Shown piece after piece: positions 3,876 through 51,841 of a DNA stretch of 64,000 nucleotides (its first letter is position 1; each line of letters opens with the position of its first letter). Origin of the DNA: Saccostrea echinata. Lineage: Eukaryota. The stretch spans positions 2,294,001 to 2,358,000 of the forward strand of contig NW_026889752.1 of assembly GCF_033153115.1 (NCBI RefSeq), written 5' to 3'. A program made the position numbers and the translations under genes. A model generated the notes under the pieces. It ran no database searches. It had not been told where the DNA came from and saw only the letters and a list, made by a program, of their open reading frames with translations.

Positions 3876-6233
3876 TCATATTGGCAAACTGTCTGGTAGG
3901 ATGACCACAGTCAATCCATGAGTTTTGATGTCATTTTCGTAGCCCAATGAGTCTCCCATGTTGATACATGGACCATAGCTTGACACCTGGTTTACGGTAT
4001 CATTCATAATTTTCACCTCTGCAAAGCCGTTTCGTTCTCTTTTGGTCAAGCGGATCACCCTAAGCTTGAAGGGAACCAGATTCCCCAGTGCACTGACCGG
4101 GGAGGGAAGTAGATCTAGTTCGTTAGGTTTTCTGTTTTGGTATTTCCATTTCAAAGTGGCTCCGTATTTTGCCGACATGTGTGATGGCGTTTGGAAATAA
4201 TGTTCCCAAAATGTTGTGGTTTTGAAAGTGGTTCCACAACGTTCGGTGTATATTCTTGGGACGTAATTTTTGAACATTTTGTCTTCAGGTGGAATTTGAA
4301 CTCCCAAGCCAAATGAGTGGTACTTGTAGCTTATGTAGAACTTGGGAAGCAGTAACATTACAAAATCCTGTATTTCTTTCATCTTTTCAATCTTATCAAT
4401 ATCATCGGGAGAAAGCATTGGGGCACGGACACTGCCAAACAACTTGACAATATCATCTCGCAGACTTTCCTGAACTGGTCGATCATATGCCTTCATCCAC
4501 TTTATTATTGCCTGGATGATATCCATTTCCGACTTGCAAACTATGGCGCCAGAATCCAACACCAAACTCAGCTCATTGGTTTCCAGTTCCACCAGCTTTC
4601 CACTGAGGTTGAAATGCTCAAAATTATGGCTTATGTACGTAATGCACTTATTGTACAATGCCTTGACATCATATTTCAAAGCAAACCTAAACCAAGGGAT
4701 GGCATTTTCACCACAGACTTCCTCAACCATGAAATCAATGCACAGTGAAGCGAGATCTTTGACCAGATACTTATCAGCCAATAGACCGAGTGGAATGACA
4801 TTTTCCTCATTCAGCTTTACTTTCCATGTGTAGAGAAACTCAAGGAATTCTGGGAAAACTTCCTCGCAGTCACCAGTTTCCTCCAAATGAAGATCAGAGG
4901 TCGAACACCAGACCTGAAATTAGAAATTAAGTTTAAAAAATTACTTTATGATTGGAAATCTGATTTTACTCTATACTGGAGTTTTCCACATCCATCCAAT
5001 GCATATCATCATAGGAAAAAAATATTCTCCATAGAAATTTTAAATATTCTCTTTATCTCTATCACTTATAATCAGACTCATTCAAGCTCTTGGATTTGTG
5101 CCAAAATCTAAGAGACAAAAATTTGGCACATAATGAAATTGAAGAGCTTAAATGAAGGCGAGTAAATATGCATGGACTGCAAGATTTCCTAGGTTCTGCA
5201 TTTTCACTTGTTTCACTTTGAATTTTTATACATGCTGCAGGGTTGTTCCTAAGACCCGGGGAATTTCCCCACCTTTATGATGTAATCCCCCGGTTATTTT
5301 GGTATTCCTCATAAATCCCCATTAGGGGAGGAACCCCAGATCCCATTTTACTTTTTAAATGTCCCCTTCTATTTCATTACTTAAGGAAAACCCTGCAGGA
5401 TGATTGTAAATGATTTTGGTCTGAAAAATTTTTTGTGTTCAGTTCTTTGTGTCCCTTGAGTACAAAGGACAGACTGTCCTACGAGACCCCAAAAACTTTT
5501 GCATCCACTGAAAATAGTCTTTGGCCAATTGTACATGTATCCCCAAACCTGATTTTGTTTATGAAATATTACTTTCAAACTAATTCTTGACTGGGGGTTG
5601 CAATATACAGCATTCCTGATTCTCTCTGTATATAATGCATGCAAGGCCTAGAAAAAGAAATATGTTTCCACTTTCAAGCTTATGGTACATAGGGATTAGA
5701 AAGGCACTTATTCACTTTTTGTGAATTTCTTCAAACAAAACATGGATGACGATAGGACTGATGCTTTGAAACATTTCTGTGATTTAAATTTACATTCGAA
5801 ATTTTTATACATTGGAAAAAATACAAAATTCAGATCCTCACTGATAAACATTTTGAAAAAGAAAAAAAGGTCAGTGCTATATTTTAGGGTTAGTGTGTTA
5901 AGCAGAAACATATTTTTTTTTTCCAAGGTCAAAGGTTTGTTACCAGATTTGTGAGTAGAGACAAAACTGATGGAAAAATGGAAACTTTTAACCATCATGT
6001 TAACACTCGAGACTTACAGACGAAAGCATGGTTTGAAAGACTTCACTGGCGCTTGCCAGAACAATGCGATGACCAAAATAGGTTGTGTCTCCAACCGTGA
6101 TTCTAACATCACTGAATTCTTCGTTACAACAGAAAACCCCATAATCTGGCGGCTGCGCCCCATTCAGTTGTTGTCCATACTTTTGCATCAGGCGTTTTCC
6201 ATATTTCAAAGAGGAAGTTGAACCTTCCATCAT
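3876..6233 (-). CDS. BTB/POZ + BACK domain protein (BTBD17-like family), 417 aa, 2 coding exons: complement(join(3876..4913,6018..6233))
   Basis: Exon A encodes the BTB start (FSDVRITVGDTTYFGHRIVLASASEVFQTMLSS) and ends at a GTAAGT donor. Acceptor TTTCAG at 4914-4915 continues in phase 0 (VWCSTSDLHLEETGDCEEVFPEFLEFLYT...LLADKYLVKDLASLC), followed by BACK-like helices (KCITYISHNF...KSEMDIIQAIIKW...VRAPML). An acceptor just upstream of the ATG (6243-6244) implies a 5' UTR exon further right. Confidence 0.9.
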
Positions 6234-33468: not shown

Positions 33469-33833
33469 TTAATATTATCAGAGTTTTTCAAATTGAAAAT
33501 CATAATCATTCTGAATTGAAGAAAAAAGAAATAACATTCAGTGGCACAGCATACACATTTGAAAAAAAAAATAATGAAAATTTCTTTGATGTATGGTGGC
33601 ATAGTTCTGCCCCCTACATGCAAGATGAATTATGTTAACATGCAGCATAATTATGTCGACATGCGACTTATTTATGTCAACATGCGACTTATTTATTTCA
33701 ACATGTTATACATATATAATTATGTAGACATGGGACTTATTTATGTCATCATGCAAGATAATTATGTAGACATGCAACTTATGTCAGAATGCAAGATAAT
33801 TATGTTAACATGCGAGGTAATTATGTAAACATG

Positions 33834-36701
33834 TGTTAGGAATGTAGCTAAAGTAAAACACCTCTGTATCGTATAGTGGTTTATTGAAACTCTAAAACTG
33901 TTATCTTCATAACGTCGTAGTAACCTCTATGACGTCACATCTTTATGACGTCATAGTTCAGTAAAAGTCATTTACACAATCATGATAAATCAAGGTAAAT
34001 AAGAAAGTTACATGTACTAATGTCCATATTTCACAACATTCTCCGGCCCCCAAAAGTGTCCATATTTCACAATATTCTCCGGCCCACAAAAGTACGAATT
34101 GAGAAAGTCATTGGACAGAGAAATAAAAGGCGGTTTTTAAATGAAAATGCAAAATGTGCATTACAAAAGTTATTCACAATGTGACATGAGAAATATCACG
34201 ATTTCACTTGGTTCAAGCTTGGATTCACTCTGTCTTTGGGTTTGGTATCATCATGTACTTGAACAAAGTCTCCAAGAAATGTTGGATAACTTGATGTTAT
34301 GTACTGAAAGCTTTGTTTGCTGTTAAATGGTTCAACTCAGATCTGAAGTTCTCTTTGTCTTTATCTGCATATGCATTGTGATGCTCGAAGTACTCCTTGA
34401 TAAACGCATTCTCTTTGGCTTGAATTTCCTGCTTAAGCTGATCAATCTGTTGATCCATAATGTTCACCTTCCTCTTCATATCTGTGATCTCTGCATCCTG
34501 AGACTCGATGATGTTTTTTCTGTAAGTGTTTTTTTCATCTTTGAAAGCTTCGTATAGATTCTGTTGTTGCCTGATTTTGGTGTCATTCTCAGAAATCTTC
34601 TTCTTGTAGTCAAGAATCTGCATGCCATGAACTTTGTTATCTTTCATGTAATTCTGAGTTAGATTGTTGGCCTCATTAATGTAGTGGTCTCGCTCCCTTC
34701 TCAGCTGGTAGATGATATTCATCTTCTCCTGGGTCTCCTCTCTGTAATTCTGAATGTTTTGCTTCAGGTTTTTCTTATCAACTTCAGCTAGCTTCTTTGC
34801 TGCCTCCAACTCTCTCTTCAAACCAGTAATTTGATCCGTAAAAGTTTCTCTCTGCTGTTCTACATCCGAATGATTTTTGTCTCTTGGTTGCTGATGTTTC
34901 CTCTGAAGTGTCTCTCTCGATATGTTGAGCCCTTGTATCTCCTGTTTGAGCTTGTTAACTTCAACTTCTTTTTTCTTTAACTCTGTTACTTGAGCTTGGT
35001 TCTCAACAGTCAACTGATTTGTAGCAATTAACTGTGCATCAAATTTGGTCTGAAGCTTTGCAAGTCGAGTTTGTAAAAACTTAACATCCCTCATAGTTTT
35101 CTCATTCACAATCTTCTGTTCTTTTATCTGCTGTTCCAATTTCGTGATGTCACTTTTATAGTTCTGTAGGTGTCCCTGTAGTTTCTTGATTTCTCTAGTC
35201 TTTGCATCCAATTCAGCCTTTGCTTGTAATGTAGGGGTATTCACCTTTTTGTTTTTGACTACGTCATGAGCAGTGCACAAACTTGTATGATGACGTCTTT
35301 TACAAATTTTACAATTAGATTTAGACTGGCAATCTGCAACACGATGTCTGCCTAAGCAGTTAAAGCACAGTTTGTCTCGTTTGAGAATTTTCACACGGTC
35401 GTTTTGTTTTCTGTATCTTTCACAGTCATTTGAATGATGTGACTCCTTGCAAAGTGCACAGCAAACTTGATGTTTCTGATGACTGTAATTCTGTTGTACT
35501 TTCTCATCACTGGATTTTGAGTGTATGTAGAAAATAGCTGTAGCACTTTCTTCTGCTGTGTCCATATGTGTTCCAGCTTCTAAAATGTCAAGTTCCCTGT
35601 AAAGACTATTCCTTAAGTCACCTAGCAACCAATCAGTAGAGCCATGTTCACGTTCACGTGCCAAATTTTTGCGCAATTCACTTGGTAATTTGTTGAGAAT
35701 AATAGGTACAAGAAGTGAACCATATGTATCCTGAGCTTGACCGAAGGATTCTAGTCCCCTGACATATGTCTCCACTTGATCATGAAAATGACGCAGGCTT
35801 GTGAGATTATTCTTCGGAACAGGTAGGTCTAAAAGTGCTTGCATGTAGGATTGCACTATCTTGTGTTTTTTTCCAAACCTTTCATGTAGGAGCTCAATCG
35901 CTCTGTTGTAATTTGCATGGGTAAGTGCAAATCCTGCAATGGTGTTCGATGCTCTCCTTCTACTAAAGACTTTAAGTAATTAAACTTTTGTACTTCAGTT
36001 AACGTGTTGTTGCTATGAATAGCTGAATCGAATGAATTCCAAAATGACTGCCATTCTAATACACTTCCCTCAAAAATAGGCAAGTTGAGTTTTGGTAGTT
36101 TATGAAAGTTACTACTGCTACTCGAATTGGAATTAGAATGAAAGTTTGTGAAGGACTGATGGCCTCTGGAATTTTCACTGAAACTATGTGATGATTGACC
36201 ATTCTCTCTGATTTGTGAATTCTCATTGTGATCTGAGTAACTGTTGGCAGTTGGATTTAAATTTGATCTTTCTACTAACAGATGTTTCTTAAATTTCCGC
36301 AAATTAGAATTTAGATTAAAATTGTACTCATCTGTATCAAGTATTTCTTTCTCAATTTCCTCCTCTGCTGTTTCTGTTCAAATTTTTTCATCAAGATCTT
36401 TGAGAACTTCTTGCTTCTCTGTCAGTGTCTCCAAAATTGTTTCCATATCCTCAGTATTTTCTTCAGAGCCATATTCTTCTAGTCTTTTTAAAAGTCTGGT
36501 TACTGCACTTCTTTGTCCTGCTCGGACTGCCTTGAGTTTAGAAATCGTAACTCCTCTTTTGTCACGGCACCAATGTTAGGAATGTAGCTAAAGTAAAACA
36601 CTCCTGTATCGTATAGTGGTTTATTGAAACTCTAAAACTGTTATCTCCATAACGTCGTAGTAACCTCTATGACATCACATCTTTATGACGTCATAGTTCA
36701 G
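33834..36701 (-). mobile_element. Non-autonomous BEL/Pao LTR retrotransposon lacking pol (gag plus captured host sequence)
   Basis: 3' LTR 33834-34038 is 205 bp, TG...CA. The 5' LTR at 36574-36701 is near-identical but truncated. PBS TGGTGCCGTGAC (minus strand, 36572-36561) is complementary to the tRNA-His 3' end. PPT GGGGCCGGAGAA lies at 34050-34039. The gag has a DUF1759-type motif and triple Zn-knuckle. No protease, RT, RNase H or integrase is present between the LTRs. Confidence 0.92.
34297..36543 (-). pseudogene. Degenerate BEL/Pao gag fused in frame to a CFAP58 (CCDC147)-like coiled-coil segment
   Basis: The gag N-terminus SKLKAVRAGQRSAVTRLLKRLE is preceded by ATT (probable former ATG), has a premature TGA at 36380-36378, then KLPKLNLPIFEGSVLEWQSFWNSF, and a 1-nt frameshift at ~35953. 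An open frame of ~550 codons follows, through the knuckles CALCKESH...CFNCLGRH...CKICKRRHHTSLC into QILDYKKKISENDTKIRQQQNLYEAFKDEKNTYRKNIIESQDAEITDMKRKVNIMDQQIDQLKQEIQAKE, which is recognisably CFAP58-like. Confidence 0.85.
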
Positions 36702-36744
36702 CTGCATATTCATGTTTCATGTTACATAAATAAGTCGTATGTTG

Positions 36745-37022
36745 ATTGATTGATTGTATGTAGTTTAACGTCCCTCTCGAGAGTTTTTCACTCCTACGGA
36801 GACGCCACCACCCGCCGGTGGAGAGCTGCAAATTTTGTCCTATACTCGACACTTACGGTCATTGAGCAGTGAGGGATCTTTTTCGTGCCAGCACCTACTG
36901 CGACACATCCGAAGGACCGGTCTCCCCGTCTCACAGTGGGATTCGAACCCGCGACGTAAGGATCAACTCCTTACTTCGCGACTCTAGAACAGACGCTCTA
37001 ACCACTGCGCCACGCGGGCGAC
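36745..37022 (-). mobile_element. tRNA-derived SINE with 13-bp TSD
   Basis: On the minus strand: A-box TGGCGCAGTGGTTAGAGC, B-box GGTTCGAATCCC and a (CAAT)n tail. TSD AAGTCGTATGTTG is at 36732-36744 and 37023-37035. Confidence 0.88.
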
Positions 37023-38473
37023 AAGTCGTATGTTGGCATAAAATCTTGCATGTTAATTAATATAAATTTATATCTTGCATGTTAACATAAAAGTCGCATG
37101 CCAACATAATTCTGTTGCATCTTGTTTGTATGAATTCGTATACTGGCGTTAGTGAGTTTACTAACAATAAAATTAGATTCTCAAAAAAAAAAGTTGGCAA
37201 CTTGCATGTTCACATAATTATTATGTATGTAGACATAAGTATTTACATTTCCAAATGTTTTCTATTATATAACATTATTGAAAGCAACGCGTATCTATAT
37301 CCGTCTAAACTCGGGTTCCTCGCGTCATAAACGTTCGACGTAAATTCTCTGTGACGTCAAAAATTACCCTCAGTCATTATCTATGGGTATCATTCTTCTT
37401 CTTTTCACCGACGTGGAGAAGGAACGTTTTGGAAGACGTAGGGGTTGAGGTTTATATTTTGAAATAGCAAAGGACTGATAACATTTAAAAAAAATGAATG
37501 AATAAATAAACTGACGAATAACTTTCACACTTGATAGTTAGGCTCACATTGTCGGAAAAATTATTATACTCTCAGTTGCACAGCAGTCATAGAGTAAATT
37601 TTATGCAAAGGCAGGGGATATGAGATTTGGGACCACCTTGAGGCTCCGAGCATAGAACATTAGAAAAACTCTAATTTGGAATTAGGGAGTGAAACCTCCG
37701 GAATCTTTTTAACTATAGCTTTCTTTAAGAAAGAATTCAAAACGATGTATATATAAATTCTTAAAATTTTATCAGTGTATTTGATCAGAGACCTATATAC
37801 TATATTTTAGTATATAGGTCCCTGATTTGATAAAGATTTTGCATTTAAATCACAACTATGATTCAATTTCTAATTTCAAGGGACAACCATGAACACAGTT
37901 GATTTATTTAAAAAATAAGTAATGTTATGCTAAAAATAATTCTATATCTTCCTATGACATGGACCTTCCTATAAAATTATTTTGCTTGCACAGTTACCTT
38001 AGTTTTCGAAACACAAAAATTACATGGTTTTCTCAAAACTTAATACATTGATATAAATTGATGATCGAGAGCAATCCTTTATGGTGTCATAATTTTTTGA
38101 CCTTTTGTAAGTCACTGAACGTAATGTTTCCCCATTTTGTTGCAGCCCATTTTATTAAATTTTATAGAGGATTACTTTCTACAACTCCATAAACAAATTT
38201 CATTGAGAGCATGTCTACCTTACCAATCTCATGAATGTACATACATTTTTGCCACATCTGAGAGAATGAATACGAAACACAGAGACTTCACTAAGATGTC
38301 AGATAAATAGCATGAATCAACACTGCACACCTTGCCACAAAAGGCAATAATTGTACTAAAGGTTTTTATGAAAATAAAATAAAAAATACTTTTATCATGT
38401 TTTACTACCGGGGTATTAACACAGAAAGGAAATTAAGGTACATTTCTTTACATGTTGTAAAACAAATGCACCT

Positions 38474-38785
38474 AGTCGCCTGCGTGGCGCAGTGGTTAGA
38501 ACGTTTGCACTAGAGTCGCAGAGTTATGAGTTGATCCTTACGTCAGGAGTTCTAATACCACTGTGGGACGGGGAGACAGGTCCTTCGGACGAGACCGTAA
38601 AAACCCAGGTCCCGTGTCGCAGTAGGTGCTGGCACGAAAAAGATCCTTCACTGCTCAATGGCTCTGAGTGCCTAGTATAGGACTAAATTCGCAGCCATCT
38701 ATCCGCAAGTGGTGGAAACTCCAGTGAAAAATTCTCGAGAGGGACATTAAACAACAAACAAACAAACAAACAAACAAACAAAACA
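38474..38785 (+). mobile_element. tRNA-derived SINE (Deu/Nin-like central domain, tentative)
   Basis: Head GCGTGGCGCAGTGGTTAGAACG, core GGTCCTTCGGACGAGACCGTAAAAACCCAGGTCCCGTGTC...AAAGATCC and an (AAAC)n tail. Confidence 0.85.
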
Positions 38786-41502: not shown

Positions 41503-41848
41503 ATTGATTGTATGTTGTTTTACGTCCCATTCGAGAATTTTTCACTCATAGAGAGACATCACCATATACCGATGAAGAGCTTCAAATTTTGACCTTTACT
41601 CGGCACTCAGGGCTATTGAGCAGTGAGGGGTCTTTATCGTGCCAACAACAGCCATGATACAGGGCCTCGGTTTTTAAGATGTCATCCGAAGGACCCGCAA
41701 CTTTCACTGCAAAGTGTCGAGCGCATGGCGAAGAAACAGTTGCTACCCATTTTTTATCGACTTAGGTCAGTCGCCGCCGAGATTCGAACTCGATCACGAC
41801 CTCCCGATCACGGAGCGAGCGCTCTGCCAACTGAGCTACCGTGAACGG
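41503..41848 (-). mobile_element. tRNA-derived SINE just upstream of the HEPN exon
   Basis: Same body as 44365-44697 and 60115-60468, with a tRNA-like head (GGTAGCTCAGTTGGCAGAGC...GTTCGAATC on the minus strand) and a (CAAT)n tail. Confidence 0.85.
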
Positions 41849-41908
41849 GTTTTTTTTTTTTATTTTTTATTTCTAAGATGAACATATTGCTTAATATTTC
41901 AGAACACA

Positions 41909-44900
41909 ATGTATGCATCAACAGAAGAAACAACTTATGCAAATCGAGCAGCTCGTTTGATATGTGGACCGTGCAAAGGTCAAATGAGGGATTTGCTAGA
42001 ACATTACGTACCAAGCAAATCTTTTCATTACGTACTTAAACACAATTATAAAAACCTACCAAAATTGACATTTTCTCAGCGAAATCTTATTTCCCCAAAA
42101 TCCGGTTCCTACAATGGAAATTATGAGGATTTTGACTTATCATTACTCTATGTCTTGTTGCGAAGCATATGTGGTCTAAGTGAACCAACCAACGGTTGGG
42201 ACGACAAACCAGATGACAGTGACAGGTCCATATCTGCAAACATAGCGAGAATAAGAGAAGCCAGAAACACGATTGCTCACTTACCGAACTACTCTATGAA
42301 TAGAAAAGATTTTCAAGCATTGTGGACAATGGTAAAAATGTCTATCATTGATATTGATACATATTTAAGTAACAGCAAATTTTATGAAAAGGAGGCTGAG
42401 TTTTTAGAAACAGAAACAATGGATCCGGAACGGGACAAGAAATACCAAGATGATTTACGTTTACTTGCAAAACAGGAAGAGGATTTGAAAACTCAGATAA
42501 GTAATAACTTACTTAAAACTTTATACATACAAAATGTTCAGATGTTAAATCGTTTCATTTAATTATTTGGATTAATGCATGATTTGGCATGCACCTTTGT
42601 TGCGTTTATTTTACGTATGAAAGGTAAAAATATTTCATTTTGGTAAAAAAAATTCTCCCTATCTAGAACACACGAATGAACGTATTGATAAGCAAGAAGA
42701 TGCTCTGCAGCTTTTTTCTAAGGATCTGGAACGTCTAAAGAAGATAGTGAAAAAACAAAACGAGGTTGCAGAAAGCCAAAAAACCAATATTTTGCCACAC
42801 AGTGAAGCATCTTATCTGCTTGAAGATTCCATAGAATGTACAAATCAAGCTCAACGCCTATTAGAAAAAGCAGAGGCAAAACTAGCAGACGCAGCTAGAT
42901 TAATAAAAGATGCCCAGCTAAGAGCACACATTGGTACATGTTAATTCTATTTTGGAAACACACTTCAACAGTAATGCTTTGCTATTTATCATTATTGGTC
43001 ATATCATGTACACCTCATGTAATATTTTTCTTCTTTTGTAGAAAAAGAGGTGTTTATGTTGACAGGTAAATATGAAAAGAAGTATTTCGAGGAAAATGAT
43101 TACTTACAATTAGTTATTGTTTATGTCCAAAATTTGGAGAATTCAGCTAACGAATTATTATTATAGAAAAATATTTTGTATAATAAGGGTGTAGTTTCCT
43201 TTTCTATTATGCAATGTGTTGAATATGAAAGATGCACCTAAGAGGGAACTTTTTCTCTATGTGAACAAGTAATTCATGAGAAGTACATGCATTGGTTGAC
43301 TTCCAGTAGTCCAAACTATATCTTTCTGGAGGAAAATGCACAATTATATTTAAATTGTAATTACGTCCATTATGGATTCATTTCATTATCAATACATTAA
43401 AGGTTCTTCATAACATCATTTACAAAGCATGCATGTCCTCAAAACATGACTTAATGATGGTACTAAGAATATTTCTTCAGAATGTAGTTTCAGGGGTTAG
43501 AATGGGTTTTCATATATAATCTCCCATGCAATGTTAAACATTAAAAAATCCTAGAAAAACAAATAAGAATATTTTTATCATAATGATAGTATAGCATTTA
43601 ATCAATTTGTAAGCAAATTTTTGAAGCATTATTTTATACATCACGGTCCATAAGGTAGGTTATTGCTTCAAAAGGAGTTCAATATTATTTTTTATGATGA
43701 CTAAATTTTACCGAATAATCCCACTACTTCCCACTGTCTAGTTTAAAGAAGCAAATTGTTGCCAAGCCAAACATGTTGTTAAAAATTATAATAAAAATGT
43801 AATATGGAAAAGATGTCAATTTCCCAACATTATCTTTTGTCGGGTCACCACTGTCACTTTAGTTAAACGACAAATTAGAATCACCATGCACGTCATGTCG
43901 TGACAAAATAGGCTGTTTTTTTTTCTTATACAGATATATATCTCATATCTAAAAATACTACCATCTGAATGCTGAAGGACAGTGCTTTATTATGTAAATA
44001 TAAGACTAGGAATATTAAGGTTGCATATAGACCCCCCCCTCCCACCCCCCACCCCCCACCCCCCAAAAAAAATGAAATTGAGGTTAAAAATTAAAATGCA
44101 CCTTTTAGGCTGCTTAAAATTGTTTTTGGACAATTATTAGGTCAAATGATAGTTGTTTTATAAGCTCATCCTAGCTGAAAGCACAAGTGAGTGTTTTTCT
44201 AATTACAATTTGTCCGACGTCCGTCTTTCCGTCTGTCTGTAAATTTTCCTCATTTTCAATTCTCAGGAACCACTGGTCAATCTCAACCAAATCTTCCCAC
44301 AAACCAATGTTGGGTAAATATGATTCAAGTTGGTCAACTGAAGGGTCACGCCTGCTTTTAAGGAATTGATTGATTGATGGTTGTTTTACGTCCCATTCGA
44401 GAATTTTTCACTCAGAGAGAGACGTCACCATATACAGGTGAAGTGCTTCAAATTTTGACCTCTACTTGGCACTCAGAGCCATTGAGCAGTGAGGGATCTT
44501 TATCGTGCCAACGTCTGCCGGTTTTTAAGGTGTCATCCGAAGGACCCGCAACTTTCACTTCAAAGTGCAGGGCGCATGGCGAAGGAACAGTTGCTACCCA
44601 TTTTTTATAGACTTAGGTCAGTCGCGGTCGAGATTCGAACTCACGACCTCCCGATCACGGAGCGAGCGCTCTACCGCCTCAGCTACCGTGAACGGTCGCT
44701 TTTAAGGAGATAATTCAGAGAAAATATGATGTCATCCTTTAAAAATCTTTTTCTGAAGAACCACTCGGTCAGGAACGATGAAACATCTGAAAGCTTCATT
44801 ACATTTGTAGATTCAAGTTTGCTAGGCGGGGCCACAATTGGGAATAAAACTTTTACATAGAAATATAGAGGGGAAAATAGATAAAAATGTTCTCCAGAGC

Positions 44901-48993: not shown

Positions 48994-51841
48994 ACAAATT
49001 AAAAAAAAGGAAAGTGGTGTCACGCTATCTGTTGTTTTGAAATAATCTTACATTGATATCAGGTTAATTTACATCCGTTACACGGTTTATATTTTATCAA
49101 ACAATTCCCAGAACTTTTGAAATACCCCTCATATTATGACGCTTGCTCAAATAATGCAATTGTGAAGAAGGCTTATTTTTTGGATACTTAATATTCACAA
49201 TACTATTTGGAGAACGCAAAATCTTTTGAGGGTACATTGATAGAGTATGTAACAAATGACATAAAAAAGCATACTTTCTTCTTTAAAATAGTTTATAAAG
49301 CTACTCGTTGATTCAATCAATATGTCATTTTGTCCATAAGTTAAATAGAATAACATGCGTCATTAAATAAAACAAAAGTGAAGCATGATTGTTTATTCCT
49401 TTGCAGATAGAACCAGACATATTTTGAGAAGGCATTGCGAGTCACAGTCATATGCAGAACTTTGTTTTGTTCAGCAAACCATTCAACAGCTTGAAGAAAA
49501 AAAGATTTCCATTATCTCTGGAGAAATTGGTTCTGGTAAAACATGCACTGCATATCAGGTGATGTGCAAGTTAGAAAAATTAAAACGTGAATTATTTCGT
49601 ATTCCTGTCATTGTTTCTTCTCCTCAAGAATGGGAAGCTGTTATTGTTACCAAATGTCGGTACGTTATTTTGCTGGATGATATTTTTGGCAGAGTTTGCA
49701 TTAGTAAAAATTCTTATTACGAATGGAATGCCTTTCTGGACAAAATGTACTCGGATGTTGAAACAACTAACCAACACGTCATTCTCTGTATGCGGACAAA
49801 CATACTTAATCAAGCTTTGGATATTTTTTCGAAGAAAAAAATGTTTAGATGTGCAGGGCATATTAAGCATGACATTTCAATTGAAGAAAAACGAAAAATT
49901 ATAAGACAATTCTCTATTTCCTGTCTAGATGAATCAAATCACATACATGGTACCAAAAAGCTTATCGAATCTGAGATAGAGGAGATTATTGACACACAAC
50001 TGTTTGACAATTATGGATTTCCATTACTTTGCTTTTTCTTTTTTGCAAATAAAACATTTTATTCCAGTAAAGCTGATTTCTTTAGAAATGCAAAGAATGC
50101 TCTTCGTATATTAATAGACAGGATGATGAATTCCGACAACATTCAAGAGAAACTGGCTTATTGTGTTCTTGTATATGTGTTGTTTAAAAAACAAATCAAT
50201 CTTCAAAGCATACCAGAGAAAGAACTAGTCTGTATTTTGAACCTGATAGGAATATCATCAGAACACATTGTGGAAAATGATATGAGGAATGCCTTGATGA
50301 TCTTTCTGCATGGAACATTTCTTTCATCAACCACTGAAGGAGACATATTCGAACTTTCACATGATGTAATAGGGGACGTTGTACTCGTTTCATTTGGAAA
50401 GTTGCGACCAGATATACTTATCAAATACTGCAGTCGAGAAACATTTCTAGAGTATATTGGACCCTTCGAATCATGCGAAAATGAAAGCGTTTTAACAATT
50501 ACAAAAACTCACTACCAGTATTTGGTGAACAGAATGTTTCGTCGTGATGATTGTGACTGTGATGAAGGTGAACTTCTAAATGGGGCTCTGGATATTCTGT
50601 GGCATCCTGCTTGTGAAAATGAAAAATTTGTTGCGTATTTACTAGACCATGGAGTCTCGGAGCATATGCCAGCAATATTAAGGAAGGTCTGGAAATGTCT
50701 TGAAGATGGAAAGCACGAAAATGCAATGTTATTCCGAAATTTACTACAAAGATTTGGTCCAATACAAGACAGTAGGGTATGGACAAATTCATTATCTGGA
50801 ATAACAACATCTCTGAAAAAAATCTTGGGTTTTGCGAATCCTAAACCCTCTATCAGTATTACGAAAGAAAACATTTCCTTGGCATTGAAAGGCTCCATTA
50901 TTCGTGGACATGAGAAAAACACTCTGAGTATTTTGACATATATTAAAAAAGATACAAAACTCCACGATCTTCTTCATCTGAAAGTAGATGGAGTAAACAT
51001 ATTCCACCTGTGTATTGCATATGGTTGGGAAACTGTTGTAAATTTGATGTTCGAGATAAACCCTGAATTAGAAGGAAAAAGTACTTTAGATGGATACACA
51101 GCCGTTCATTTTGCTGCATATGGGGGTCGTACTGAACTTCTGAGAATGTTAGAAGAAAAGAATGCAAGCTTTATCAGAAAATCAAAGAACGAATACTCTG
51201 CTTTTCATTGCCTTTTGTTTGGATTAAGATACGGACAGCATATTGTGAGAGGACCAGCTTTTACCAAAAAAATTAAGCTGGATGTTAACCTCAAATTTCC
51301 AGGGGAGAAAAGCTACATGGAAGCATTAGACATCTTGGCGGAGAAAGGTTTGGACATATCAAAGGATGTACAGTTTGAGGTTGATCGGTATGGTCACAAT
51401 ATCATACACTACCTAATAATTCACAATTACAAGGAACTACTAGTGAAATGTCTCGGAGACAAAAAGTTAGATTTTTTCTTTTTTAAATCAAGCAATCTTT
51501 TATCCAATCCCCTAAACGTTGCTGTCTATTTGGGGCGAGCTGAAATAGCTGAAAAGCTATGGGAGGCTGGAGGAAGAGTAGATAGATCTCAAGAGATAAG
51601 TCCATTCGATCTCATATCTGAAGGAAGAAAGTTTCAGGATAAAACTGGAAGTAGAACTGGTGAATGGTATGATGAATTTGCAACATACGATACCCCAGAA
51701 CAATTCGATAAAGATGAAGTTCTACAGACCCGTAGCATGCTTTCAATAATTGAGAATGTCCTGGTGACATATGGGAATAAAGACGATTTTGATACCATAC
51801 AAATGTTCTTGGAGAGCCATGTATACAAAAAACCCATCTAA
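41909..51841 (+). CDS. HEPN (DZIP3-type) - coiled coil - STAND NTPase (nSTAND3-like) - ankyrin repeat protein, ~1105 aa: join(41909..42500,42667..42933,43042..43065,49407..51841)
   Basis: All three GT-AG introns are phase 1 and the join is stop-free (3318 nt). HEPN hallmarks are FDLSLLYVLLRSICG, PTNGW and REARNTIAH. The NTPase has Walker A GEIGSGKT (49520-49543) and Walker B ILLDDIFG, then GFPL and a winged-helix-like H-D motif (FELSHDVIGD). Ankyrin repeats include DGYTAVHFAAYGGRTELLRMLEEKNA and NPLNVAVYLGRAEIAEKLWEAGG. Extra small exons in the 6.3-kb intron cannot be excluded. Confidence 0.82.
44157..45280 (+). mobile_element. HINE-type element with Cg170-like repeats, interrupted by a SINE
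   Basis: 5' end AGCTCATCCTAGCTGAAAGCACAAGTGAG, a GTCC/GTCT tract and repeated GTAGATTCAAGTTTG / ATCCTGACCCCCGGGG units, as in 15488-16417. Confidence 0.7.
44365..44697 (-). mobile_element. tRNA-derived SINE with 11-bp TSD
   Basis: TSD GCTTTTAAGGA at 44354-44364 and 44698-44708. The tRNA head and (CAAT)n tail are on the minus strand. Confidence 0.88.
45540..46482 (+). mobile_element. HINE-type element with ~135-bp internal repeats
   Basis: 5' TCTTCTGAGTCAAAGGCTCAAAGAG, repeated CATCAAACTT...GTTGATGCATCTTGGGTCCTCAAAG units, and 3' CAGAAGAGCGATTCAAGCCCCTTGGGCCTCTTGTT. Confidence 0.65.
48932..48993. repeat. (AAAT)n microsatellite
   Basis: About 15 consecutive AAAT units. Confidence 0.95.

Follow-up and report, generated by a model that had tools for sequence, protein, structure and literature searches.

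In a stretch of 64,000 nucleotides (nt) from the oyster Saccostrea echinata (RefSeq assembly GCF_033153115.1, contig NW_026889752.1, positions 2,294,001 to 2,358,000; hereafter the window), an earlier reading made from the letters alone (the sequence-only reading) described a long terminal repeat (LTR) retrotransposon of the BEL/Pao group, in which gag is followed not by pol but by a piece of the ciliary gene CFAP58. The question raised by this locus, 33834..36701 on the minus strand, is how a host coiled-coil sequence came to stand in the place of pol, and what has kept it there. The element is a non-autonomous BEL/Pao LTR retrotransposon with gag fused to a CFAP58 piece and with pol replaced. 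A capture involving two junctions, followed by repeated insertion and by exchange with gag-pol partners, is regarded as practically certain. The complete model, which comprises an origin by LTR-mediated retroposition, spread in trans and a Gag with a generic, mutation-tolerant helical tail, is held with a little more confidence than doubt.

The window copy contains a BEL-type gag with the Pfam domain DUF1759 (expect values, E, of 4e-21 and 9e-16) and three zinc knuckles, as had been proposed, and neither a pol domain nor the order protease, reverse transcriptase (RT), RNase H and integrase of autonomous BEL/Pao elements was found in it by Pfam. Downstream of the knuckles, at about 35226, the unchanged frame enters a coiled coil identified as CFAP58_CC (E 4e-40). 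The direct repeats at 33834-33961 and 36574-36701 are 97% alike, which agrees with the matching pair of the sequence-only reading. However, the LTR is about 200 nt long (about 205), judged against other copies of the chimera, and not 128 nt, the 5' LTR being shortened. The 3' LTR begins with TGTTG directly after the polypurine tract (PPT). The primer-binding site (PBS) was correctly assigned to tRNA-His: it matches the 3' end of tRNA-His genes of this genome over 12-13 nt (12 nt in the window copy), with ARAGORN calls at 3/3 loci. A pattern search of the genome for tRNA-His gave 12 matches, of which three loci are 3' halves without a His call and three others are full genes.

Some further observations were made on the ends of the element. 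The tandem 36-nt unit of PPT and LTR start is also present in L019, L020 and L052, and use of the upstream PPT has lengthened both LTRs in some copies. The tRNA-His 3' halves at L060, L061 and L062, two of them with a genomic CCA behind, are possibly reverse-transcribed primer remnants. The element was inserted within a 21-nt minisatellite, which occupies 33626-33833, 36702-36745 and 37040-37240 of the window.

The window copy is a decayed member of its family, which the sequence-only reading had missed. In addition to the shortened 5' LTR, the start codon of the other copies is missing (expected at about 36547), gag is interrupted by a stop (36378-36380) and, near 35950, by a frameshift of one base, and a second stop, at 34297, occurs in no other copy. 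The latter had been taken for the end of the coiled coil. The captured piece already ends at about 34329, and the stop lies inside an integrase-derived tail, into which the open reading frame (ORF) of an uninterrupted copy runs about 21 codons further.

For the host CFAP58 gene, located at G000:C1:39.118-39.123 Mb, seven exon pieces match the element in order. Compared to the spliced host coding sequence, the element shows 81% and 76% nucleotide identity on the two sides of a 114-nt gap, which equals 38 codons and falls within the 35-40 residues estimated before. On the protein level the identity to the host is about 60% with gaps counted, in comparison to about 20-23% for generic coil matches, and a merely generic coiled-coil similarity was rejected on the basis of this colinear match. 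Six host exon junctions are spanned, and not a single exon: four are joined exactly, a fifth adjoins a deletion of 9 nt, and the sixth falls into the 114-nt deletion near 34775, the other five being located at about 35113, 34975, 34812, 34651 and 34498. Exon skipping was rejected as the origin of the 114-nt gap, since the gap ends within exons at a common AAGAA. Of the host segment of 337 residues, 337 are identical in the S. echinata RefSeq protein, 335 in S. cucullata, 331-332 in Crassostrea and 329 in Ostrea edulis; thus, nearly all amino-acid change has occurred on the element side. CFAP58 (also CCDC147; PF21771) is an axonemal protein included in the structures PDB 8j07, 8glv and 9fqr. 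It is the source of the piece, which consists only of residues 226-562 less 38, with about 40% of them changed. With about 300 of 874 residues, the piece has neither the full length nor the host-like conservation of a functional paralogue.

Gag-pol relatives are present in the same genome (L050-L053 and L055), with L050 containing DUF1758, RVT_1, Peptidase_A17, integrase and DUF5641. The partner matches bases 1-1484 of the element and matches again from base 2362, about 3.7 kb further along in the partner, which shows that the internal ORFs were replaced and not merely interrupted. About 900 nt of host coding sequence stand in the place of protease, RT, RNase H and most of the integrase. The frame is kept at both joins, from gag to the CFAP58 piece and from there to the integrase-derived tail, and both carry microhomology between host and partner (Table 1). 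Similarity of this extent was reached by 0.15% (8/9) and 0.08% (10/12) of 200,000 random junction pairs. At the 5' switch point, the gag-pol models of S. cucullata contain the same LQAK as the chimera. The loss of six introns and the microhomology at both junctions support the origin put forward by the sequence-only reading, in which a spliced mRNA of CFAP58 was captured through template switching.

A DNA search of the genome detected seven chimeric copies, with 87-92% identity to the window copy. Six of the seven have a distinct 5-bp target duplication of their own, and the window copy has lost its left end; because the duplications differ, segmental duplication was excluded as the source of the copies. 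In one of the seven the LTRs are identical and the frame is uninterrupted over 772 codons. Over the LTR and the first 600 nt, this copy shares 99-100% identity with a gag-pol element, compared to 73-93% in the other six; this recent exchange of LTR and gag segments with the partner is best explained by co-packaging. A mosaic gag was also identified in two copies. The mobilisation in trans suggested earlier agrees with these results, namely a multi-copy junction, distinct target duplications and gag-pol partners with an identical LTR in the same genome.

Gag genes domesticated by a host are single fixed loci without LTRs, in synteny between species. Here, the copies are dispersed and flanked by LTRs, and 6/7 are broken. 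This bears on the idea of a dominant-negative Gag, which would poison the particles of the gag-pol partner and be retained for the benefit of the host. A conserved Gag with a bulky tail, joined ahead of the protease start, would suit such a function, and Gag-host fusions co-opted in plants and fungi are described in the available text of PMC8321522. However, most copies are decaying, with one in seven uninterrupted, and this one is among the youngest as judged from its identical LTRs. This is the pattern of a selfish family and argues against a Gag kept by the host, so that very little credence is given to this explanation.

In S. cucullata, the RefSeq models XP_062621678, XP_062586234 and XP_062607336 share both the junction and the large deletion with the chimera; the fusion is known there from gene models and not from DNA. 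The chimera therefore either predates the split of the two species or has moved between them. Among 221 Gag-like proteins (best 120 of 248 and best 150 matches), the CFAP58 fusion was found in another species only for S. cucullata models. Copies of the chimera have been annotated as host genes (P0003-P0006), among them an S. cucullata model under the name 'protein hook homolog'.

Contigs were available from four sequencing runs (X1-X4), which are presumed to be RNA by guess and the contigs of which give no strand. Run X1 contains contigs identical to the uninterrupted copy, one of them bridging the junction of gag and CFAP58. Another bridging contig, with eight differences, is present in run X4, so that the junction is bridged in two of the four runs. 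In run X2 a sibling contig, which is a short deletion derivative, ends in 26 A, 13 nt past the AATAAA of the LTR. In the genome, a similar form at L057:1275-2242 is a 968-nt derivative of the backbone of this family with both LTRs and a target duplication.

As judged from protein and DNA sequences, two further BEL lineages have reached the same layout with other host coiled-coil genes. Among the 221 Gag-like proteins, eight have at least 100 residues past the knuckles which are unmatched to the pol of a partner. Six of these resemble divergent proteases or deletion forms, and two (P0041 and P0275) carry a coiled coil. In this family, here called the third, Gag is followed by a coil unrelated to CFAP58 and 76-82% identical to oyster PF15742 proteins, and then by an in-frame integrase tail; its LTRs and intron loss are judged from protein evidence. 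The PF15742 protein is presumably CCDC30, a name that also occurs in one low-scoring Atlas row; Pfam and Atlas searches added nothing on P0041. DNA of a P0041-type chimera was not found in a metagenome scan, among 16 loci of which L074 was read and is a gag-pol relative. The matches in G000 contained only the intron-split PF15742 host gene (exons L151:4955-8309).

The search with P0041 led to a second family in this genome, which has at least 20 copies there, consisting of elements of about 2.7 kb with LTRs of about 138 nt, mostly 95-100% alike. Its ORF of 778-805 codons is uninterrupted in 8 of 20 aligned copies. Behind Gag and the first residues of the protease, the copies carry five exon pieces, without introns, from a host gene for a long coiled coil (G000:C54:65.137-65.141 Mb, L149:3125-6862), with 11 nt of microhomology at the join of coil and integrase end. 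The tail beyond is read in a shifted frame, yet it is open for about 30 codons. Neither Pfam nor the two Atlas searches named the donor gene, which we take to resemble CCDC150. L105 (G000:C64:1.52-1.53 Mb) contains a second-family chimera head to tail with a gag-pol partner, the two apparently having one LTR in common.

The Gags of the three families are mutually 42-55% identical, which indicates that the captures were independent. A search with DUF1759, which is blind to the coil, gave 116 matches and also recovered both local families; no host capture was present at 20 other loci among these matches where the region behind the knuckles was readable. The recurrence suggests a recurring design rather than a single accident. 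Coil-less in-frame derivatives have also been identified in other BEL lineages, namely L109:1495-3861 (Gag, protease and integrase tail) and P0233 (Gag and integrase tail).

Table 1. Features of the window copy of the Gag-CFAP58 element (window positions) and loci of the second family.
Feature	Position or locus	Strand	Remarks
5' LTR remnant	36574..36701	-	128 of ~205 nt; first 77 nt and left target duplication gone
PBS	36561..36572	-	12 nt complementary to tRNA-His 3' end; 13 nt in most other copies
BEL/Pao gag	35227..36548	-	DUF1759 at ~35659-36074
Three Cys/His zinc knuckles (nucleocapsid)	35275..35460	-	sequence reading
5' junction microhomology	35218..35226	-	9/9 to host CFAP58; host vs partner 8/9; in frame
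CFAP58 piece, intronless	34329..35226	-	host residues 226-562 of 874
3' junction microhomology	34329..34340	-	host vs partner 10/12; returns in frame to integrase gene end
Integrase-derived tail, start of DUF5641 region	34237..34328	-	private stop at 34297-34299 in window copy
Two 36-nt copies of PPT and LTR start	34021..34092	-	PPT adjoining LTR at 34039-34051
Complete 3' LTR (TG...CA)	33834..34038	-	AATAAA at 33880-33885; outer flank begins CATGT
Second-family copies	L098-L104, L107, L108, L110-L114, L116, L117, L152, L154, L155, second half of L105		
Second-family gag-pol partners	L105/L106		

Selection among the copies was analysed by maximum likelihood (ML) estimates of omega, the ratio of the nonsynonymous (dN) to the synonymous (dS) rate, from a purpose-written codon model, and by a permutation test which keeps the mutation spectrum; copy L056 was masked across its deleted part. 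For gag of the CFAP58 chimera, ML omega was 0.45-0.46 (p ~1e-11 against 1, and ~5e-12 at 0.45), and omega was 0.34 for shared variants. For the CFAP58 piece, ML omega was 0.72-0.75 (p 0.035-0.07), the permutation test gave 0.83-0.94, which is not significant, and counting with a transition/transversion ratio (kappa) of 2 gave 0.57. Between host and copies, dN of the piece was 0.16-0.18 and dS 0.48-0.54 at kappa 2, with dS including the host branch. In the second family, the 20 copies gave an omega of 0.56 for shared variants of gag (P=0.002) and of 0.93-0.99 for the coil, and ML estimates on 12 of them gave 0.59 (p 4e-5) and 0.87 (p 0.36), respectively. The dN/dS comparison called for by the sequence-only reading thus revealed purifying selection on gag, with CFAP58 residues that are near neutral.

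A different picture was obtained for the reading frame. In the CFAP58 piece, 2 stops were found among the copies against 10.3 expected (P=0.001), and 0 against 7.5 on the stem; in the coil of the second family there were 3 against 12.3. A hand count from the alignment showed that 8/8 shared indels keep the frame in comparison to 2/8 private ones (Fisher p=0.007), and each of the large deletions (114, 399 and 1491 nt) removes a whole number of codons. The earlier proposal that the piece evolved as an open frame within the element lineage is in line with this depletion of stops and shared frameshifts. On the stem of the CFAP58 piece, amino acids were replaced more conservatively than expected by chance (BLOSUM P=0.0075). 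With the CFAP58 coil and the coil of the second family pooled, stem and shared changes include 1 proline against 8.2 expected (p=0.003), and private changes 6 against 5.3. These statistics show that Gag and the open frame have been kept by selection and the CFAP58 residues barely, and that the captured part keeps its frame open, avoids prolines and otherwise drifts. A single-sequence model predicts a fold of long helices for the tail, with a mean predicted local distance difference test score (pLDDT) of 70.6.

Several explanations other than a generic helical tail have to be weighed against these numbers. The piece might be a neutral passenger, with the apparent selection produced by gag patches imported from the helper and by the way in which the copies were found. 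Two copies do have a mosaic gag, the second family was sampled from top matches, and gag omega rose to a non-significant 0.85 in seven copies, with 0.73 (P=0.026) in five, once all variants also present in partners were removed. However, the seven CFAP58 copies were collected by searching DNA, shared gag variants not present in the four partners are still strongly biased to synonymous changes (omega 0.26-0.35, P<0.001), and the captured piece has diverged by about 20% from the host without a shared stop or frameshift. A neutral passenger is accordingly considered quite improbable.

A CFAP58-specific activity, by which binding to CCDC146 or to the axoneme would steer particles to sperm or ciliated cells, corresponds to the targeting tag of the sequence-only reading. 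The piece covers some of the conserved central coiled coil, its ML omega is slightly below 1, and CFAP58 is axonemal and pairs with MBO2/CCDC146, as stated in the available part of PMC11151096. Yet the residues are not preserved (omega 0.72-0.9), which makes targeting to sperm or axoneme unlikely, and identity is about 60% to a host segment that is conserved at 98-100% across oysters. Moreover, the 38-residue deletion, several register-changing indels, the further loss of 133 codons in one copy and the unrelated coils in the sister lineages all stand against it. Such a tag is regarded as very unlikely.

The main rival is a filler acting on the RNA level, in which a frame left open until shortly before the 3' end averts nonsense-mediated decay or keeps the RNA at a favourable length, and in which coils prevail only through being harmless and through the likeness of their mRNAs to the A-rich element. 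It would account for a near-neutral omega together with the strong depletion of stops and frameshifts in two families, for the in-frame deletions, for the open shifted tail of the second family and for the existence of coil-less in-frame derivatives, which aid it in particular. Against it, the depletion of prolines and the conservative stem replacements point to some constraint on the protein level, and long 3' untranslated regions are only presumed to trigger decay in oysters. Overall, this filler is considered unlikely, more readily entertained than the preceding alternatives.

The favoured model, a Gag with a generic helical tail, would then work as follows. During reverse transcription, RT would have switched template onto a co-packaged spliced CFAP58 mRNA, as in the known mechanism. 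The chimera would be co-packaged with gag-pol partners and borrow their enzymes, while the Gag-coil protein would join helper particles and favour its own RNA. In the place of Pol, the coil would serve as a generic soluble helical tail by which Gag is not poisoned; it would let translation proceed until close to the 3' end of the RNA, and it may add self-association. The captured piece would no longer function as CFAP58.

A number of points weigh against this model. The Gag-coil fusion protein is a prediction, and the runs with contigs are only presumed RNA. Runs X2 and X3 contain a form with an in-frame 1491-nt deletion, from which most of gag is gone; splicing was rejected for this skip, which lacks GT-AG ends and is read as a deletion derivative. 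The coil-less 968-nt copy L057, together with L109 and P0233, implies that not every mobile derivative requires a coil, and one CFAP58-chimera copy has lost 133 codons of its coil. Three captures are few, and the A/G-rich mRNAs of coils may simply provide more opportunity for microhomology. As to the statistics, copies of the second family were drawn from top protein matches, which favours intact ones, and recombination among copies violates tree models. The proline test pools three small counts and was picked after the data were seen, with 1 proline against 1.5 expected in shared CFAP58 variants alone, and tests of helix propensity and BLOSUM among the copies were mostly not significant. Finally, the Gags of Ty1 and HIV-1 act without cis-preference according to the text available from PMC3945221, so that a benefit of retaining gag is inferred.

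A stronger version of the model can be proposed only tentatively, and we would sooner doubt than accept it. Here, BEL/Pao elements of oysters would repeatedly yield a parasite of a parasite, in which Gag and a host coil of about 250-300 residues stand for Pol, and the coil would be a positively useful module for self-association or spacing that helps the short element to win places in helper particles. If true, this would account for three origins, for the persistence past a species split and for copy numbers at least equal to those of the helper.

In the window, inverted repeats of about 290 nt are located at 36742-37025 and 38472-38773; with a tRNA-Arg-like head called by ARAGORN at 36928-37019, they probably represent a tRNA-derived short interspersed element. 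A tRNA-Thr was called at 41769-41846. On the plus strand, 41882-42562 contains a HEPN_DZIP3 exon and 49382-51841 an ORF for an nSTAND3 NTPase with ankyrin repeats, possibly parts of one immune-type gene. An ORF with a BTB-BACK domain is present on the minus strand at 3876-4919.

Gene captures by LTR elements of animals are usually regarded as young or dying, in contrast to the CFAP58 chimera, which is long-lived and still mobile. Donor gene, helper and copies are available in one genome, with the second family as an internal replicate, and selection can be resolved cleanly into parts acting on Gag, the open frame and the helix-forming character. This makes it testable why non-autonomous LTR elements retain gag and which captures survive. 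On the practical side, copies annotated as host genes can be mistaken for CFAP58 paralogues.

In acutely transforming retroviruses, gag is fused to an onc gene, pol is replaced by a spliced host piece and a helper is needed. There, the activity of the captured protein is selected, whereas in the chimera, a germline retrotransposon, the host sequence drifts. Free of any oncogene, the chimera offers a natural model for the fusions of gag and host sequence in transducing retroviruses. The TR-GAG elements of plants consist of LTRs and gag without pol and are mobilised in trans. The chimera shares with them the gag-only organisation and the mobilisation in trans, TR-GAG elements belonging to plant lineages. 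We know of no host-derived tail in TR-GAG elements.

Among the titles and abstracts of the literature, with subscription journals and Repbase outside the coverage, no element carrying CFAP58 and no recurrent capture of coiled coils by Gag was found. The accessible text of a survey of mollusc LTR elements contains no mention of capture, non-autonomous or coiled. Within BEL/Pao, the clades Sinbad, Sparrow and Surcouf of the Sailor lineage are named in the available part of PMC6238403.

The closest precedent is provided by the LTR-mediated retrocopies of metazoans described by Tan et al. 2016 (PMC5131818, available sections), where the Pao element BATUMI is among the donors and retrocopies were re-mobilised. 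As in the chimera, internal ORFs were replaced by a partial spliced mRNA with microsimilarity at the switch points, both LTRs were retained and further non-autonomous copying took place. The Drosophila cases are less than 1% diverged, most older ones are decayed, and the frame was judged against the parental protein. In contrast, the CFAP58 chimera is about 20% diverged, is present in two species, is in frame with a selected Gag and recurs with coiled coils. Maize Bs1 is likewise an LTR element with transduced host sequence that was copied further and reported as a chimeric gene; it belongs to a plant and contains pieces from three genes unrelated to each other, and the descriptions in the accessible parts of PMC5131818 and PMC7264820 contain no recurrent coil layout.

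The telomeric retrotransposons of Drosophila resemble the chimera in the repeated independent capture of one class of host genes, and families with captures reach higher copy number (available text of PMC13534243). They differ in being non-LTR elements which captured piRNA-pathway genes and act via small RNAs, not by a Gag fusion. By analogy, the piece of an essential host gene could be a shield which makes silencing by PIWI-interacting RNAs (piRNAs) costly, and the chimeras do equal or outnumber the gag-pol partners seen. However, at 79-82% identity almost no cross-targeting piRNAs were found in the same source, the CFAP58 piece has 76-81%, and the maintenance of the frame would be left unexplained, so that such a shield is rated the least probable of the explanations. 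The capture mechanism, LTR-mediated retroposition, is already known, and the chimera stands out by its recurrent, long-lived layout of Gag and coiled coil, of which no report was found in the literature covered, and by selection on the frame and not on the sequence.

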